A DNA stretch of 10,324 nt from a virus: the UHGV virus genome UHGV-1724002. One strand, 5' to 3'. Below are positions 1 to 9,224 of the stretch, piece by piece. The number at the start of each line of letters is the position of its first letter. Positions within the stretch are counted from its first letter, which is position 1. The position numbers and the translations under genes are program-made. The notes beneath the pieces are model-generated. The model ran no database searches and was not told the origin of the DNA. It saw only the letters and a program-made list of their open reading frames with translations.

Positions 1-663
1 CTTGCCGTACCCCTGGTAGTTTTACGCCATTCCCTGAACTGTGTTCTGAATGCCGAAGCTGCGTTTTTCTTCCCGGCTTTCCGCATGCCTGCACACCAGA
101 ATATTTCCTCGAATGCCTTGTCGGTTTCTTCGTGACGGTCATGTGATTTTTCACACTCCGTCCGAACACTTTCGGACATAGTGTTTTTATTATTTCTTTT
201 TTCTTTGTAATAGTTTCTTTTGTGTGTCCCTGTTTTGGTGACAGCGCTGTCACCGTTTTGGTGACACTTTTTGTCACCAATGCAGTGACATTATCACCAG
301 AGTAGTGACACCCTTCTATTTGCCATTCCTCGATGTTCTTGTTAGGCCCGATTTGCTGGCCTTCGCGAAGGATAACCTTCATCGCGATAAGCTCATTCTT
401 GGCCTTGTTTACCTTCTGTCTTGGCAGCCTGGTAATTTGAGCTAACTGACTATCAGAGATGCGATCCATCTTTTTACCGTAGCCGTATGTTTTACGGCAT
501 ATGGCGTGGGCAACCTTGCTCTGATTTTCGTTAAATCTGCGCCGATAAGCTCTTCATACAGGGCATTTGCAAGACGGGTATAACCATCTTCAACTTCTGC
601 CACACGACGCTCCACAGGCCGTTGTGAAGGCCTTAAATGTGTTACGGTTGCAAGATTACTCAT
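1..663 (-). CDS. O: Replication initiator, lambda O family (5' partial at window edge; apparent -1 frameshifts near 525-528 and in the AT-rich stretch ~184-202)
   Basis: N-terminus from ATG 663 reads ...VAEVEDGYTRLANALYEELIGADLTK, matching lambda O (..VADLDDGYARLSNMLLEAYSGADLTK..). After the T4 run at 525-528 the -1 frame continues with lambda-O-like ..CRKTYGYGKKMDRISDSQLAQITRLP..GPNKNIEEW... SD gaaggagaaagg precedes the ATG. Iterons and AT-rich region lie inside the gene as in lambda. Confidence 0.65.
183..310. repeat. Putative replication origin: about four dyad-symmetric iterons built on GGTGACA/TGTCACC (233-310) beside an AT-rich stretch (183-229)
   Basis: Direct reading: GGTGACAgcgcTGTCACC (237-254), GGTGACActtttTGTCACC (259-277), GTGACAttaTCACC, GTGACAcc at roughly 20-bp spacing, then a T/A-rich tract. 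The layout mirrors lambda ori inside O. Confidence 0.55.
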
Positions 664-682
664 GACCTTTCTCCTTCTGTCA

Positions 683-802
683 TCAGCTCACTTTTTCCAA
701 CTCAGCCCGGAATCGACCAGGCTGCTTGAAGCTGGACAGGAAGCGATCACGTAGTATGTGTTTGTGAATTTTGTCCTGGTAAGGACTGAGTTGTTTTGTC
801 AT
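683..802 (-). CDS. Hypothetical 39-aa protein between cII-like and O-like genes
   Basis: ATG at 802-800 preceded by SD caggag at 5-nt spacing; translation [39 protein letters not shown]; stop at 685-683. No homology recognised. Confidence 0.3.
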
Positions 803-834
803 AATGACTCCTGTTGATAGATCCAGTAATGACC

Positions 835-1130
835 TCAGAATTGCATATCAATTTGCTTAAAATCCTCGGTGGCGGCCGGGGATTTTTCTTTGTGATTTCA
901 TCAAGCGCATACTTAAAAGCCCTGCTAATCGGACTGATGTCTGATGCCATTCCGAAAGCACACAAGACCGAAGCAATAAATCTCCAGTCCGTTCTGCTTA
1001 TCTTCGATTCATGACAGCCAATCATCTTTGCCAGACCGCGCTGGGTAAGCGTTGACAGGTTGATGAGTAAATCAGTTTCAGCGCGATCAATTTCTCGCTG
1101 TGTTGGCTTGCTATAACTTGCTTGTGTCAT
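835..1130 (-). CDS. cII: CII-like transcriptional activator (apparent -1 frameshift at T5 run 883-887; reconstructed length about 98 aa)
   Basis: Position right after cro/nutR. HTH region ..[32 protein letters not shown] resembles lambda CII ..ESALLNKIAMLGTEKTAEAVGVDKSQISRWKRDW. In the -1 frame after the run the C-terminus reads [15 protein letters not shown], against lambda ..RPAATERSEQIQMEF*. The track ORF 747..1130 is the unshifted read-through. Confidence 0.65.
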
Positions 1131-1214
1131 TTGTTAATTTTCCAATAGTGAATAGTTAGTTGAAAGGTATGCGTGGAAACGCATATGGCCTTAGTTGGTC
1201 AGATATCTTGGGGC

Positions 1215-1260
1215 TCGCTTTGTCAGCGACGTAGGACGAATGTCCATTGTGAAAAGAGCG
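1215..1260 (-). promoter_or_regulatory. nutR-like site: boxA-like CGCTCTTTT (1260-1252) and boxB-like hairpin UCGCU-GACAA-AGCGA (1229-1215)
   Basis: Read on the minus strand immediately downstream of the cro stop. boxA resembles lambdoid CGCTCTT(T/A)A. boxB is a 5-bp stem with GACAA pentaloop, which I recall as the P22 type, not the lambda GAAAA/GAAGA type. Confidence 0.45.
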
Positions 1261-1267
1261 GTGTTAC

Positions 1268-1477
<210 letters not shown>

Positions 1478-1494
1478 TTAGTACATGCAACCAT

Positions 1495-1561
1495 TATCAC
1501 GCTAGAGGTAAAATAGTCAACACGCACGGTGTTAGATATTTATCCCTTGCGGTGATAGATT
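1495..1561. promoter_or_regulatory. Right operator region: OR1 (1495-1510, 16 bp, atypical), OR2 (1518-1534), OR3 (1541-1557), with PR (-10 rc 1494-1499, -35 rc 1515-1520, leftward) and PRM (-35 1533-1538, -10 1556-1561, rightward, leaderless cI)
   Basis: OR2 CAACACGCACGGTGTTA and OR3 TATCCCTTGCGGTGATA match lambda exactly. OR1 reads TATCACGCTAGAGGTA against lambda TATCACCGCCAGAGGTA. Confidence 0.9.
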
Positions 1562-1564
1562 TAA

Positions 1565-2281
<717 letters not shown>

Positions 2282-2367
2282 GTCCGCAGCAAGAGACTTT
2301 ATACGCATCTAGATGTAGGAAATAAAAAAGAAGATCCCTACAATAAAAATAAGGAAATCATTAAGAT

Positions 2368-3273
2368 ATGTCGATTAACAGCAATAGCGAATCCCTGCAT
2401 CAAATGCAGCTTTTCCCTGTAGTAGAGGTTGTTTCTGATGATATTCCTATGGGCGTTCTCAATGATGGAACTCCTTACCTAACTCTCTACGGTCTCGCAA
2501 AGTTATGCGGCATTGATGACACGCCACTGAGGGTGTTCACATCAAACTGGAACACAGAGAAAAACAAACCCAGAGGTCAAAAAGTAGCTGCGTATTTAGC
2601 TGAGAAAGGGTTTCATAACGTCGAAAAGCTATACACTCGCGTTTTAAATAGCTCAAACGTGGAAACTCATGCTTATCCTGACTATGTTTGCATGGCTATC
2701 CTCCGTTACTACGCTCTAGATGCCACCAATTTTGATAGGTCAGTCGCAATAGGTAATTTTGTTCGCTTGGCTGAGTACACGCTTAAGCGAATGATTTATG
2801 AAAAGTCAAATTACAACCCAAATGCTTCAATAGATATCTCATTCGAGAACTATAGAGCAAGGATTAAGCTAAACGATCAGATACCGACAACTCATTTTGC
2901 AGTATTCAGAGAGATAGCTGACATTGCCATGAACCTGATCGGAGGAGGATTCCCAATGGATGACACCACATCTTTGGATGGAAGTGTTGGAATTCACTGG
3001 GGAAAGTATTGGACAGCTAATGGGCTATCTGAGAAATTCGGGGAAAGGGTGCAGTACCCACATTTATTCCCCGAAAATTACAGGCAGTCAGCTGCAAATA
3101 AGCATATAACAGCTTGGATTTATCCTATTGAGGCACTTGGCGTGTTCAGAAAATGGCTACACGATAATTACGCAATGGAAAAACTGCCAAATTACCTTGG
3201 GAACAAAAAGATTAGTAACGCCTCCGAGCTATTAGAGTCGATAAAAAAACCAGCACTCCCAAATAAGCATTGA
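2368..3273 (+). CDS. Hypothetical 301-aa protein in the rexAB-equivalent slot; possible KilA-N-like N-terminal domain; candidate BstA-like abortive-infection/exclusion protein
   Basis: Single uninterrupted ORF between cI and the tIMM-like terminator, same strand as cI, AT-rich by eye, SD aagga upstream. N-terminal segments DGTPYLTLYGLAKLCGIDD and ..THAYPDYVCMAILRYY resemble the KilA-N/APSES pattern from memory. Not search-verified. Confidence 0.8.
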   Translation: MSINSNSESLHQMQLFPVVEVVSDDIPMGVLNDGTPYLTLYGLAKLCGIDDTPLRVFTSNWNTEKNKPRGQKVAAYLAEKGFHNVEKLYTRVLNSSNVETHAYPDYVCMAILRYYALDATNFDRSVAIGNFVRLAEYTLKRMIYEKSNYNPNASIDISFENYRARIKLNDQIPTTHFAVFREIADIAMNLIGGGFPMDDTTSLDGSVGIHWGKYWTANGLSEKFGERVQYPHLFPENYRQSAANKHITAWIYPIEALGVFRKWLHDNYAMEKLPNYLGNKKISNASELLESIKKPALPNKH

Positions 3274-3284
3274 TCTCCACCACA

Positions 3285-3310
3285 ACCCGGCATCTGCGCC
3301 GGGTTTTCTT
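3285..3310 (+). terminator. Intrinsic terminator (tIMM-like) ending the cI/cargo-gene operon
   Basis: Hairpin ACCCGGC-atctgc-GCCGGGT (3285-3304) followed by TTTTCTTT; flanking sequence resembles the lambda tIMM/OL-proximal region. Confidence 0.6.
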
Positions 3311-3461
3311 TGCCTAACGCCCCCAAAAAACGCATAACCAATTGTATTTATTTCAAAATTAATAGATACAACTCACTAAACATCGCAATTCAGATCTCTC
3401 GATCACCTTCCCAATCCACACAACCCTGCAAAAAATAAATCTATATAAAAAACATACAGAT

Positions 3462-3531
3462 AACCATCTGCGGTGATAAATTATCTCTGGCGGTGTTGAC
3501 ATAAATACCACTGGCGGTGATACTAAGCACA
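3462..3531 (+). promoter_or_regulatory. Left operator region OL3 (3462-3478), OL2 (3482-3498), OL1 (3506-3522) and PL promoter (-35 TTGACA 3496-3501, -10 GATACT 3519-3524, start near 3531)
   Basis: Near-identical to lambda OL/PL: TATCTCTGGCGGTGTTGACATAAATACCACTGGCGGTGATACT. Confidence 0.92.
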
Positions 3532-3563
3532 TCAGCAGGACGCACTGACCACCATGAAGGTGA

Positions 3564-3594
3564 CGCTCTTAAAAATTAAGCCCTGAAGAAGGGT
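3564..3594 (+). promoter_or_regulatory. nutL: boxA CGCTCTTAA (3564-3572) and boxB GCCCUGAAGAAGGGU (3580-3594)
   Basis: Matches lambda nutL except the last boxB stem base is T where lambda has C, giving a G-U closing pair. Confidence 0.85.
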
Positions 3595-3752
3595 AGCATT
3601 CAAAGCAGAAGGCTTTGGTGTGTGTGATACGAAACGAAGCATTGGCCGGAAGTGCGAATCCGGATTAGCTGCCAATGTGCCAATCGCGGGGTGTTTTCGT
3701 TCAGGACTACGACTCCCACACACAACCAAAGCTAACTGACAGGAGAATCCAG

Positions 3753-4079
3753 ATGGATGCACAAACACGCCGCCGCGAACGTCGCGCAGAGAAACAGGCT
3801 CAATGGAAAGCAGCAAATCCCCTGTTGGTTGGGGTAAGCGCAAAACCAGTTAACCGCCCTATTCTCTCGCTGAATCGCAAACCGAAATCACGAGTAGAAA
3901 GCGCACTGAATCCGATAGACCTTACAGTGCTGGCTGAATACCACGAACAGATTGAAAGCAACCTGCAACGTATTGAGCGCAAGAATCAGCGCACATGGTA
4001 CAGCAAGCCACGTAGTGAAATGGGGTTGACTTGTGTTGGTCGCCAGAAAATGAAATTAGGCTGCAAACCACTTATTTGA
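3753..4079 (+). CDS. N: Antitermination protein N
   Basis: MDAQTRRRERRAEKQAQWKAANPLLVGVSAKPVNRPILSLNRKP.. matches lambda N including the arginine-rich motif; SD aggaga before ATG 3753. The track ORF from 3675 is an upstream in-frame extension through nutL. Confidence 0.95.
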   Translation: MDAQTRRRERRAEKQAQWKAANPLLVGVSAKPVNRPILSLNRKPKSRVESALNPIDLTVLAEYHEQIESNLQRIERKNQRTWYSKPRSEMGLTCVGRQKMKLGCKPLI

Positions 4080-4087
4080 GGTGATAT

Positions 4088-4351
4088 ATGGACAAGAAAA
4101 TTAAATCATTGAAGCCAGGAATTGTTATCAGAGACATAAGTGGTGATTACGATACAGAGACATATGATATTTTATATGTGCATGCAGATGGAAAATGTCA
4201 GTATTCGAACGACATTTTTAATAATAAAGGTGGTGCCGAAATTGCTGCCACCACAGTTAATAAAGAGTTAGTAGCTAACGAGTCGTGGGATTATTTTATG
4301 CCATCATCCACTTCTATGAACTGGAAAGTGGTTTTGTACATTCCATCATAA
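4088..4351 (+). CDS. Hypothetical 87-aa protein (AT-rich moron directly downstream of N)
   Basis: SD gaggtga before the ATG; the start lies 8 nt after the N stop; followed by an intrinsic terminator. No homology to lambda Ral or SieB recognised. Confidence 0.7.
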   Translation: MDKKIKSLKPGIVIRDISGDYDTETYDILYVHADGKCQYSNDIFNNKGGAEIAATTVNKELVANESWDYFMPSSTSMNWKVVLYIPS

Positions 4352-4392
4352 TTGTAGCTGCCGTTCAAAAATGAAAGTAAATCTAACATCAC

Positions 4393-4418
4393 AGGCCGCA
4401 TAGTCGGCCTTCTTTTGG
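4393..4418 (+). terminator. Intrinsic terminator
   Basis: Hairpin AGGCCG-catagt-CGGCCT followed by TCTTTTGG. Confidence 0.6.
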
Positions 4419-4512
4419 CATAAACAACAGAGGCTAACATGGAATTTAAAGGTACTAGGAAAAATTGGCGAGAAGCCAATTTGCAGGCTTAATTTTATTT
4501 TCACACCCGGGA

Positions 4513-4695
4513 ATGGCCCTATCCGGTAAAGAAACAGAAGAGGCCGTAGCAAATGGAAGGTTGGCTATGGCTGCACCGGATTTACTTGAAGCACTTCAGT
4601 TATTACTTAAGCAAGCCGAAAATAGAACAACGACAACATATCCAGAATGGTATGGAGCTGTTAATAAGGCTCGCGAAGCTATCAAAAAAGCCTAG
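4513..4695 (+). CDS. Hypothetical small protein (start uncertain; alternative ATG at 4567)
   Basis: The track ORF begins at TTG 4465. The first in-frame ATG is 4513; ATG 4567 has the better SD (ggaagg). Product ..MAAPDLLEALQLLLKQAENRTTTTYPEWYGAVNKAREAIKKA. Confidence 0.4.
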   Translation: MALSGKETEEAVANGRLAMAAPDLLEALQLLLKQAENRTTTTYPEWYGAVNKAREAIKKA

Positions 4696-4705
4696 GTGAT
4701 GAGTA

Positions 4706-4864
4706 ATGAATAAGAGATACATCGTTGAAGTTATAGAGCGAGAAACAAAAGAAGTAATTAAACATTTCGAATTTGATAATTATAGAAAAGCTGACCGAGT
4801 AGAAGAAGGATTGTTGCGACAAAGTAATCTCGAAAAATTTGATGTTGTCATGCGATGCGAATAA
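4706..4864 (+). CDS. Hypothetical 52-aa protein
   Basis: ATG 4706 with SD aggtga about 7 nt upstream; MNKRYIVEVIERETKEVIKHFEFDNYRKADRVEEGLLRQSNLEKFDVVMRCE; below the track length cutoff. Confidence 0.45.
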   Translation: MNKRYIVEVIERETKEVIKHFEFDNYRKADRVEEGLLRQSNLEKFDVVMRCE

Positions 4865-4957
4865 GCGCCTATAGCAGATTTACGAGTCTGCTATGTGAGC
4901 AATGTCGCTCGTAACTAAACAGGAGCCGACTTGTTCTGATTATTGGAAATCTTCTTT

Positions 4958-4984
4958 GCCCTCCAGTGTGAGGGCAATTTTTTT
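4958..4984 (+). terminator. Intrinsic terminator
   Basis: Hairpin GCCCTC-cagtgt-GAGGGC followed by a T7 run (4978-4984), immediately upstream of the SD/ATG at 4997. Confidence 0.65.
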
Positions 4985-4996
4985 GATGGAGGATAT

Positions 4997-5964
4997 ATGA
5001 GTGAAGTAACAGACTTAGTTGTTATTGAAAAAGCAAATGCAATGACTGTATTTCAGTCTGCAGACCAGATTGAAGAAATTCTCCAAAAGGTTGAACGTGA
5101 AGTTATGTCCTTTGTGCCTGATATCACAACGGCAAAGGGCAGAAAGGAGATCGCTTCTCTGGCGTATAAGTTGCGCAGACGAAAACATATCTCGATGGTC
5201 TTGGCAAAGACCTTGTTGCTGAACTGAAGGAAATTCCAAAGCTAATTGATGCCAACCGCAAGACAGTGCGCGATCGCCTTGATGAACTGAAAGCCAAGGC
5301 TCGCCAGCCTCTTACTGATTATGAGGAGGAACAGGCACGGATTAAAGCCGAAGAAGAAGCTAAGGCAGCAGCTGAAGCTCTCGCAAAGCAAATTGAGTCT
5401 GACCATGAAATAGCGATTTTGATGGATCGCGAATTTGACCGCCAAAGAGAAGAGGCAAGACTCAAAGCGGAGCAGGAAAAGCGAGAGCATGAAGAACGCT
5501 TAAAAAGAGAAGCTGAAGAGAAAGCCAGAGCAGAAGCCGAAGCAAAGGCAAAAGCCGAAATTGAAGCAGCAGCAAGGCGAGAAGCAGAAGCTAAGGCCGC
5601 AGCGGAGCGTGCAGAGCGTGAGCGCATTGAAGCCGAGCAACGAGCACAGCGCGAAGCAAAAGAGGAAGCAGAACGAGCTGAAAGAGAAAAGCAGGCAGCA
5701 ATTGAAGCAGAACGCAGAAAAGCACAGGAGGAGGCTGAACGAATCCGTCGCGAGGCTGAAGCAAAAGAGCAAGCCAGAATAGCAGAAGAAAAAAGAATCA
5801 AGGACGAAGAAGAGCGTAGAGCAAAGGATAAAGCTCACCGGAAAGAAGTAAATAACAAAATACTTGCTGACCTTATCAAGGTTGGCGCATCAGAAGATGT
5901 TGCTAAAAATATCATAACAGCCATCGTAAAAGGCGAAGTATTCGCAACAAAAATAACCTACTAA
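4997..5964 (+). CDS. Highly charged coiled-coil protein (E/A/R/K-rich) with short N- and C-terminal domains; apparent -1 frameshift near the A4 run 5182-5185
   Basis: SD ggagga before ATG 4997. N-terminal frame ..KEIASLAYKLRRRK stops at 5227 while the -1 frame is open from 5170 and continues ..TYLDGLGKDLVAELKEIPKL.. into a long EAEAKAKAE-type repeat region, ending ..NNKILADLIKVGASEDVAKNIITAIVKGEVFATKITY. Confidence 0.6.
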
Positions 5965-5988
5965 TAAAACCAACATAAGGAACCACCC

Positions 5989-6120
5989 ATGATTTACGCA
6001 ATCGCGGGAGGCGCTCGCATGGGTGCCTTCCAACTAAATGAATCTTTACTTGAACGAATCACCCGTAAATTACGTGACGGATGGAAAAGAGTTGAGGTCT
6101 TATTATGCGCAATGAAATAG
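5989..6120 (+). CDS. cIII: CIII-like protease-inhibitor protein (43 aa, divergent C-terminus)
   Basis: MIYAIAGGARMGAFQLNESLLERITRKLRDGWKR.. against lambda CIII MQYAIAGWPVAGCPSESLLERITRKLRDGWKR..; SD aagga upstream. Confidence 0.75.
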   Translation: MIYAIAGGARMGAFQLNESLLERITRKLRDGWKRVEVLLCAMK

Positions 6121-6257
6121 CCATCAATCACCAGATGCTTCGTGCAGCACAAAACAAAGCAGTAATAGCCAGATTTATTGGTGATTCAAAAATGTGGCTT
6201 GAAGCAAATAAAGCGATGAAATCAGCTATCAACCTTCCGTGGTATCGCAGGAAATGA
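6105..6257 (+). CDS. kil: Kil-like host division inhibitor (start may be the internal ATG)
   Basis: ..AVIARFIGDSKMWLEANKAMKS.. resembles lambda Kil ..ATFIGDEKM.. from memory; sits immediately after cIII as in lambda. Confidence 0.55.
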   Translation: MRNEIAINHQMLRAAQNKAVIARFIGDSKMWLEANKAMKSAINLPWYRRK

Positions 6258-6361
6258 GTTTTACAGATAACTGGTCAGACGAAGAATTCATTCGTCAGAT
6301 GAACAAAATGCTCAATCAGCACAAAGAACAGGAGAAAGATGATGATTCTGACTCTGAATGA
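6254..6361 (+). CDS. Hypothetical 35-aa acidic protein
   Basis: ATGA overlap with the kil stop; MSFTDNWSDEEFIRQMNKMLNQHKEQEKDDDSDSE; weak evidence only. Confidence 0.3.
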   Translation: MSFTDNWSDEEFIRQMNKMLNQHKEQEKDDDSDSE

Positions 6362-6650
6362 TAAGCGTGAAATATCGCAAATAATCGCAAGTTTTACTGA
6401 TGAAGATTACGAGCGAATCAACAGTGAAGTTGATCGCCTCTGCAAACGTTGCGACCCAATAAGCGAAATGCTTCGCTCATATAAACCAGATGAACACACT
6501 AAGGACGCTATCGACTGGCTGGAAGATGATGACTGTAACTATCAGGAAAAAGCCGCTGAATGGTTCTGGGATGCAATAACCGAAAGAGTTAAGGCTGAAT
6601 ATGCCTTCGCAATATTCAAACGCAGACACATTTTTGGAGAAGCAGCATGA
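6339..6650 (+). CDS. Hypothetical 103-aa protein immediately upstream of recT (occupies the lambda gam position)
   Basis: SD aggag before the tandem ATGs at 6339/6342; its stop overlaps the recT start (ATGA). No homology to lambda Gam recognised. Confidence 0.6.
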   Translation: MMILTLNDKREISQIIASFTDEDYERINSEVDRLCKRCDPISEMLRSYKPDEHTKDAIDWLEDDDCNYQEKAAEWFWDAITERVKAEYAFAIFKRRHIFGEAA

Positions 6651-8528: not shown

Positions 8529-9224
8529 ATGAGCGAAATTAATTACCAGGCACTGCGTGAGGCGGCACAGAACGCGAAAGATTTAGGTGGGATTAAGAAT
8601 TACAAGCGAGGTGAGCAAGCTGTTGCCGAATTTGAGTCCTTAATAACGCCACACATTGTGCTGGCGCTTCTGGATGAACGGGAAAGAAACCAGCAATACA
8701 TCAAACGCCGCGACCAGGAGAACGAGGATATTGCGCTAACGGTAGGGAAGCTGCGCGTTGAGCTTGAAGCAGCAAAATCAAAACTCAACGAGCAGCGCGA
8801 GTATTACGAGGGAGTAATCGCGGATGGAAGTAAGCGTATTGCTGAACTGGAGAAAAGCGAAGAGCAACTCATCAACGAGCGTGACCATGCTGAGTCTGCT
8901 TTAGCTGATATGTATTTTGCAGCAACCGGGGATAGGCCTGAGTGGAGCAACTGGTTCGGCTTTTCAGATGCTGTCGATGCCGTGGTTGACAGAATTGCTG
9001 ATTTAGAAGCTAAACAGCCATCGCCAGTAGTGCCGGATAATGCATCAGAGTCTCTTGCTTATGCTTACAAAGAGCTTACGCCTGAGATTATGCGCGGTCA
9101 TATCGCTGTATTCGAGCGATATGGAATAGCCCCAAACGATAGCATTACCACAATTCAGGCACTGCGAATCGCGCTGGATGGTATAGAGCGGAGCAACGCC
9201 ATGCTTCAGGGGAAAGGAGAGTGA
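8529..9224 (+). CDS. Hypothetical 231-aa coiled-coil protein, possibly Ead/Ea22-like
   Basis: Strong SD aaaggagg before the ATG; a central region of coiled-coil character; position corresponds to the lambda ea22 neighbourhood. Family call is from memory and weak. Confidence 0.7.

Follow-up and report, generated by a model that had tools for sequence, protein, structure and literature searches.

A lambda-class N and nutL facing a P22/HK97-class nutR in a lambdoid phage contig from a metagenome

Lambdoid phages need matching N, nutL and nutR, although N and nutL are separated from nutR by the immunity module, which is exchanged more freely than any other segment of these phages. The locus described here raises the question of whether the two sides can come to belong to different specificity classes in a real phage, and what this would mean for early gene expression. 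It lies in the window, i.e. the whole stretch of 10,324 nt that was analysed, which is a complete 10.3-kb metagenome contig (ENA ERZ504554, NODE_1596_length_10324_cov_2.02) with about 2x coverage. An earlier note on this DNA had proposed that nutR is of the P22 class while N and nutL are of the lambda class. This combination was found in the window: the nutR boxB has a GACAA loop, the N motif is identical to that of lambda and nutL has a GAAGA loop (Table 1). On balance, it is probable that the contig represents a real single-crossover recombinant in which the action of N on the rightward operon would be impaired.

Table 1. Positions of the features discussed in the text, numbered from the first nucleotide of the window
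Feature	Position	Strand	Basis and remarks
cII, HK97 type, ATG at 1130	835..1130	-	Alignment to HK97 CII
TTGC-N6-TTGC	1108..1121	+	Direct reading; equivalent site annotated in EF120460
Hairpin UAUGCGU-UUCC-ACGCAUA, 3' of boxB	1185..1168	-	Fold; 7-bp stem
nutR boxB UCGCU-GACAA-AGCGA (DNA TCGCT-GACAA-AGCGA)	1229..1215	-	Direct reading and fold
nutR spacer hairpin GGAC-AUUC-GUCC, between boxA and boxB	1245..1234	-	Fold
nutR boxA CGCTCTTTT	1260..1252	-	Direct reading; 7 nt past the cro stop
cro, lambda immunity type, 66 aa	1268..1468	-	ORF list; Pfam Cro in the gene calls of the source contig; stop 1270..1268
Crossover interval, inside cro	1308..1378		Informative-site (SNP) mapping; type-B alleles to the left, type-A alleles to the right
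cI	1568..2281	+	ORF list
301-aa gene in the rexAB slot, between cI and PL	2368..3273	+	Annotated elsewhere as BstA C-terminal-domain protein
PL and nutL	about 3490-3594	+	
nutL boxA CGCTCTTA	3564..3571	+	Direct reading
nutL boxB GCCCUGAAGAAGGGU = GCCCTGAAGAAGGGT, GCCCU-GAAGA-AGGGU, lambda class	3580..3594	+	Reading, search and fold
N, lambda class	3753..4079	+	Pfam PF11438 (N36), E = 1.6e-26

The rightward (PR) operon is encoded on the minus strand in the orientation of the window. As judged from its sequence, the segment 1131-1267 is an intact nutR of the HK97/H-19B/933W class, consisting of boxA, a spacer hairpin, a GACAA boxB and a hairpin in the tR1 region. Its boxA is close to the CGCTCTT(T)A of early transcripts and aligns with the boxA of HK97, mEp234, lambda and P22. 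The spacer hairpin has 4 bp and is predicted by folding at -5.0 kcal/mol, accounting for 97% of the ensemble. Shortly 3' of boxA, within the cro/cII interval, the boxB folds into a 5-bp stem with a 5-nt loop (-6.4 kcal/mol, z = -2.4), and its GACAA pentaloop, U-A closing pair and G+C-rich stem are those of the P22/HK97 class. A lambda-class boxB has a GNRNA loop with a purine at position 3 and U-A closure, whereas the nutR loop has a C at this position. Going by this class assignment, the boxB would not be recognised by the N of the same genome. The hairpin 3' of boxB (-7.8 kcal/mol, z = -3.1) is kept in HK97, mEp234 and H-19B and has the position of the lambda tR1-region hairpin, which suggests that it may be part of a Rho-dependent tR1.

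A search of the whole window with the lambda boxB GCCCTGAARAAGGGC, allowing up to three mismatches, recovered nutL and one chance site with three mismatches inside a gene (9198..9212). None was found downstream of cro, so that no lambda-type boxB had been overlooked in the cro-cII interval, and nutL is the only lambda-class boxB of the window. A comparison with all Rfam families at E-values up to 1 gave no match at nutR or nutL. The sole Rfam match, Mu-gpT-DE at 404..458(-) inside the O-like gene, was taken as a chance hit (E = 0.64; 20.3 bits, with a gathering score of 49).

The nutR module as such is a known element. Its stretch of 201 nt is 99% identical to HK97 and 92-93% identical to mEp234 and H-19B, and for the segment covering cI, cro, nutR and cII (793..2277) the identity amounts to 98% with HK97 and 97% with both mEp234 and HK106. 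From the cro stop onwards, the window shows 92% identity to the Stx phages H-19B and 933W. In HK97, mEp234 and HK106 (AF069529, EF120460, EF120461), and likewise in H-19B and 933W, boxA, the 22-nt spacer with its hairpin, the boxB UCGCUGACAAAGCGA and the downstream hairpin are the same as in the window, and the HK97-class site is also situated between a lambda-type cro and an HK97-type cII. The hairpin is already annotated in EF120460 and EF120461 as 'putative nutR boxB', with CGCTCTTTT as boxA, and the GACAA nutR 40-mer was found 424 times in complete E. coli genomes, in 416 of the 5,426 searched. Because of this annotation and the occurrence of the same 40-mer in 416 genomes, the boxB is not a chance hairpin. 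For H-19B, two hairpins have been described in nutR, and boxB and the spacer are reported to be protected by H-19B N together with NusA/NusG (PMC3526286).

The difference between the window and these phages lies on the other side of the immunity module. HK97, mEp234 and H-19B encode an N of 127 aa that, like P22 N, belongs to Pfam PF25694 and has the P22-like motif GNSRSRRRERLKAKALANG, and the nutL boxB of this class, GCGCUGACAAAGCGC, equals that of P22. In contrast, the window encodes a lambda-class N and has the nutL boxB GCCCUGAAGAAGGGU. Its N is identical to lambda N at residues 1-64, including the arginine-rich motif MDAQTRRRERRAEKQAQWKAAN at residues 1-22, and the GAAGA loop of nutL agrees with the GNRNA form of the lambda class. 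In the nutL boxB of the window, a T replaces the final C, resulting in a terminal G-U pair. This variant accompanies an N allele whose C-terminal 20 residues are unlike those of lambda N, and was seen in eleven other collected loci, from several E. coli genomes and metagenomes.

The loop of the nutR boxB had been called P22-type in the earlier note, and the P22 record indeed has GACAA at both sites, with the nutL boxB GCGCTGACAAAGCGC (GCGCU-GACAA-AGCGC) and the nutR boxB CCGCC-GACAA-CGCGG. The same loop is found at nutL and nutR of HK97 and mEp234. The P22 nutL boxB shares 13 of 15 positions with the nutR boxB of the window, with only the terminal pair differing, and both have the GACAA pentaloop, the U-A closing pair and a 5-bp stem. 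In terms of these features, 'P22-type' is an accurate label for the nutR boxB RNA. P22 N (gene 24 protein) shares PF25694 and a similar arginine-rich motif with the HK97-class N, and a P22-class N is absent from the window. The P22 sites differ from the nutR of the window in their flanks, their stem ends and their boxA-boxB distance of 8 nt compared to 22 nt.

Lambda nutR (boxA CGCTCTTA, boxB GCCCUGAAAAAGGGC) corresponds to the nutR of the window in position, logic and U-A closure, and the arginine-rich motif of lambda N is that of the window N. The two loops, GAAAA in lambda and GACAA in the window, are only one base apart, at loop position 3, which is a pyrimidine in the window. The stem sequence, the spacer, which is longer in the window, and the downstream cII differ as well. 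CL707-like phages with lambda immunity (EF120459; GCA_005386765.1) have N, nutL with the G-U variant, the BstA_C-domain gene, cI and most of cro in common with the window, and the CL707 record matches it at 98.7-99.0%. Unlike the window, they possess a lambda-type nutR (GCCCUGAAAAAGGGC), a 92-aa cII and a cro-cII gap of 118 nt.

For the mapping of the joint, two matched types were used as references. Type A is E. coli GCA_005386765.1 contig BFPV01000075.1, with lambda N and lambda nutR, and type B is the E. coli MLI106K1 prophage, with HK97 N and a GACAA nutR; both carry a BstA_C-cI-cro module. Over 1..1307, the window and type B agree at 99% identity. Compared to type A, it has no substitution from 1308 to 6412, and all six mismatches fall within 1262..1307. 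By these informative sites, the switch lies between 1307 and 1379, within cro and not within the spacer. The earlier note had placed it in the cro-cII spacer and was thus off by roughly 50-120 nt. Lambda homology through boxA, which it took to mark the joint, merely reflects the universal conservation of boxA. Its boxA-boxB distance of about 22 nt agrees with the measured 22-23 nt, as opposed to 8-9 nt in lambda and CL707, but this spacing was not made by the joint because it is native to the nutR of the HK97/H-19B class. A recombination scar as the origin of the spacing was therefore rejected.

The exact 161-nt haplotype across the junction was not found in IMG/VR or in the GTDB representative genomes, and a 301-nt stretch across the junction (window 1200-1500) had no full-identity match in complete E. 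coli genomes. A metagenome scan with the exact 161-nt haplotype gave one match, the contig OGIO01007513.1 (L250; ENA ERZ1745517 NODE_7513, also ERZ925883 from ERR528735, PRJEB6337). L250 and the window belong to different ENA analyses. It shares the junction haplotype and the nutR scaffold with the window, has a different cI-PL cassette and carries a lambda nutL, the first 28 residues of lambda N and an intact HK97-type cII. Its nutR boxB reads UCGCU-GAAAA-AGCGA, i.e. with a C to A change at loop position 3.

The combination of N and nutR classes was examined in the pool of all fetched loci, of which 198 could be classified. Lambda N occurred with a lambda nutR in 99 loci and HK97 N with a GACAA nutR in 98; the combination of lambda N with a GACAA nutR was found once, in the window, and HK97 N with a lambda nutR did not occur. 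Among 80 IMG/VR contigs fetched by similarity to the window N, all that reach nutR carry GCCCUGAAAAAGGGC. Conversely, an exact 27-mer from the GACAA nutR retrieved 120 IMG/VR contigs, and all 92 with enough upstream DNA had an HK97-class N and a GACAA nutL, with no lambda N among them. No mismatched sibling was found in the E. coli genomes, where every candidate spanning N and cII was matched (lambda/lambda or HK97/GACAA), and N and nutR also matched in the phages PhiR5_2 and vB_EcoP-720R6. An N-protein scan of GTDB genomes returned mostly lambda DNA contamination in unrelated genera. Seventeen such GTDB loci (Shewanella, Pseudomonas, Paenibacillus, Capnocytophaga and others) are on low-coverage contigs of up to 48.5 kb with lambda-type N, nutL and nutR and an N of about 90% identity to that of the window; these look like control-DNA contamination and not like prophages.

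The Cro protein of the window also adjoins further N classes. One is a genuine P22-class N (motif GNAKTRRHERRRKLAIER) with nutL and nutR as in P22, and another is a fourth N class in which both boxBs read CCCGCCGAAAUGCGGG; in the loci of both classes, the motif agrees with the boxBs of both nutL and nutR. At least four N/nut systems have thus been combined with the lambda immunity module by shuffling, and N, nutL and nutR remain matched although they are located on its opposite sides. Ten E. coli genomes with exactly this Cro protein were inspected. In one of them, N is a hybrid that combines a P22 arginine-rich motif with a C-terminus resembling that of lambda N, and another represents the fourth class, with the motif NARNRRRARRQAQREQ and the boxB CCCGCCGAAAUGCGGG at nutL and nutR. 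In four other loci, a remnant of 17-36 residues of the C-terminus of a lambda-class N lies directly 3' of an intact HK97-class N. Such remnants are labelled in RefSeq as a partial 'antitermination protein' or 'regulator', and in type B and one further locus there is a pseudogene annotation alone. They look like an old mosaic scar at the 3' end of N.

Residue 55 of the window Cro is Ile instead of Val. Downstream of nutR, an HK97-type cII is followed by replication genes, and the nin/Q region is outside the window. CII agrees with HK97 CII in 82 of the 83 N-terminal residues, beyond which a 1-base deletion in an A-run (about 882) shifts the reading frame. The TTGC-N6-TTGC repeat overlapping the cII start would be the expected CII-binding site in the -35 region of PRE. 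The BstA_C domain of the 301-aa gene was not recovered by the Pfam scan in this analysis. In L250 (1554-2315) and its relatives, the rexAB slot holds a KilA-N gene and a separate BstA_C-domain gene, and both cassettes of this slot are found with either N class. A further observation is a CC to C deletion at position 1499, between the -35 and -10 of PR and within operator OR1. The extra C is present in both parental types and in lambda; if real, the deletion would damage OR1 and shorten the PR spacer, but another read error is more likely.

The quality of the contig is critical for the interpretation of the mismatch. Compared to its closest relatives, it has at least 11 single-base deletions, all in homopolymers (203, 524, about 680-687, 882, 1499, 4459, 4690, 5167, 7025, 8405 and 9704). 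The O-like replication gene is split twice, and cII, the DUF2740 gene, the PF27050-like gene, the TolA-like gene, RecT and the last gene of 318 aa are split as well; the deletions are most likely sequencing errors and do not mark pseudogenes. A decaying prophage, as might be suspected from frameshifts in cII, O and RecT, was rejected since all of these are single-base homopolymer deletions in a 2x contig. Due to this coverage, the evidence that the two arms are physically joined comes from a single assembly path of low depth.

An assembly chimera is rather unlikely, although it has to be weighed seriously. In this case, a sample with phages of both types A and B would have led a de Bruijn assembler to switch paths within the identical stretch of 71 nt at 1308..1378, and the combination of N and nutR would be unreal. 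This is compatible with a SPAdes-style contig of about 2x coverage, and the switch interval is exactly a run in which A and B are identical and which exceeds the k-mer sizes common in SPAdes-type assemblers. The deletions are also denser on the short type-B arm, with about 4-5 in 1.3 kb compared to 7 in 8.8 kb, as could result from unequal read depth, but this may merely reflect falling coverage near the contig end. Furthermore, the junction haplotype is absent from the complete E. coli genomes, from IMG/VR and from the GTDB representative genomes. Counter-evidence comes from L250, which has the same 161-nt haplotype and the same combination of arms in another ENA analysis. Between types A and B there are nine identical runs with a length of 55 nt or more, and the 71-nt run accounts for about 4% of their length, so that two independent artefacts at this place are unlikely. 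In addition, the right arm of L250 has a lambda-like loop change that was found in no HK97-N phage, which is unexpected for a mis-joined type-B strain. If the window is a chimera after all, it shows that regulatory 'mismatches' can arise as artefacts in metagenome contigs of low coverage when the phages are homoimmune.

For the reading as a real recombinant, the following course is proposed. One homologous crossover inside cro would have joined an HK97-class right arm to a lambda-class left arm supplying lambda N, lambda nutL, cI and most of cro. Its parents would have been homoimmune, with lambda immunity and a common BstA_C-cI-cro module, and both matched parental types exist with this same module (types A and B). 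Since N and nutL are located to the left of the immunity module and nutR to its right, such a crossover parts N from its cognate nutR. On PL transcripts, N would be loaded normally at nutL. On PR transcripts, the lambda motif, which needs GNRNA with a purine at position 3, would face GACAA, leading to poor recruitment of N. The polymerase on these transcripts would not become termination-resistant, antitermination past tR1 and the downstream terminators would be weak, and the expression of cII, O, P and especially Q beyond the downstream terminators would be lowered. Such a phage would show poor lytic growth, yet it could exist as a stable and repressible prophage with intact lysogenic maintenance. 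Provided that the contig is not chimeric, its rightward early gene expression is probably crippled.

Both the weak binding of lambda N to this boxB and the resulting phenotype are predicted from the sequences and from published binding data. Lambda N requires a GNRNA loop and a closing U-A pair, and in deep mutational data a pyrimidine at boxB loop position 3 'dramatically impaired' its binding (PMC12027372). Because of these data, poor use of the GACAA loop by lambda N is expected, and the C to A change in L250 fits as well. The arginine-rich motif of the window N is unaltered from lambda, i.e. there is no adaptation in the protein.

Hence, the only other lambda-N-linked copy of this nutR is changed at exactly the base that is expected to block lambda N in the window, and the C to A change of L250 recreates, in sequence, the loop of lambda nutR on a foreign stem. 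A possible explanation, although a doubtful one, is that the window and L250 represent one real lineage that is re-matching its antitermination after the crossover, with an unadapted (GACAA) and an adapted (GAAAA) state. The 40-mer of the GAAAA variant had no match in the 5,426 complete E. coli genomes or the phage collection, and its 27-mer had none in IMG/VR. L250 has a coverage of 1.4x and several private substitutions, and its C to A change could be a read error at the key base, with a chance estimated here at roughly 0.2-0.5%. If the lineage is real, it would be a natural hybrid incompatibility in phage mosaicism that was repaired by a single-nucleotide switch of RNA-protein specificity. 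If both contigs share the junction by descent, the lineage persisted and diversified, and the mismatch would not be immediately lethal.

It is quite improbable that the recombinant is real but functionally adequate, with lambda N working well enough at this site or the rightward operon needing little N, so that the mismatch would be nearly neutral. Adequate N action could be reached by boxA/Nus-factor assembly, by weak boxB binding or by high N levels. Termination at lambda tR1 is only partial, and lambda with a nin deletion can grow in the absence of N, which counts for this explanation. In its favour are also a boxA near the consensus (CGCTCTTTT), a stem and a closing U-A pair that satisfy the other requirements of lambda N, and the occurrence of the junction haplotype in two metagenomes whose cI-PL cassettes differ, a sign of some persistence. 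However, the 197 other classified relatives are without mismatch, although mismatches would be expected to arise easily from the 2.3 kb of shared homology, which argues for strong selection against them. Moreover, the only other lambda-N-linked copy of the scaffold, in L250, has position 3 changed to A, and this position is among the bases at which a pyrimidine most damages the binding of lambda N (PMC12027372).

What is new at this locus is the heterotypic pairing of nutL and N with nutR, together with a possible one-base natural suppressor; it is a variant within a known system. A single crossover in the immunity module yields a specificity mismatch, as the contig shows, and the emergence of such recombinants is unsurprising. 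Their rarity and the change in L250 make the textbook rule of N-nut specificity a testable natural case. The occurrence of the mismatch in only one of 198 classified loci is direct evidence that N-nut compatibility limits which mosaics survive. Since the classes differ here by one loop base, the mismatch and its possible suppressor in L250 provide a simple, testable system for the change of RNA-protein recognition in the modular evolution of lambdoid phages.
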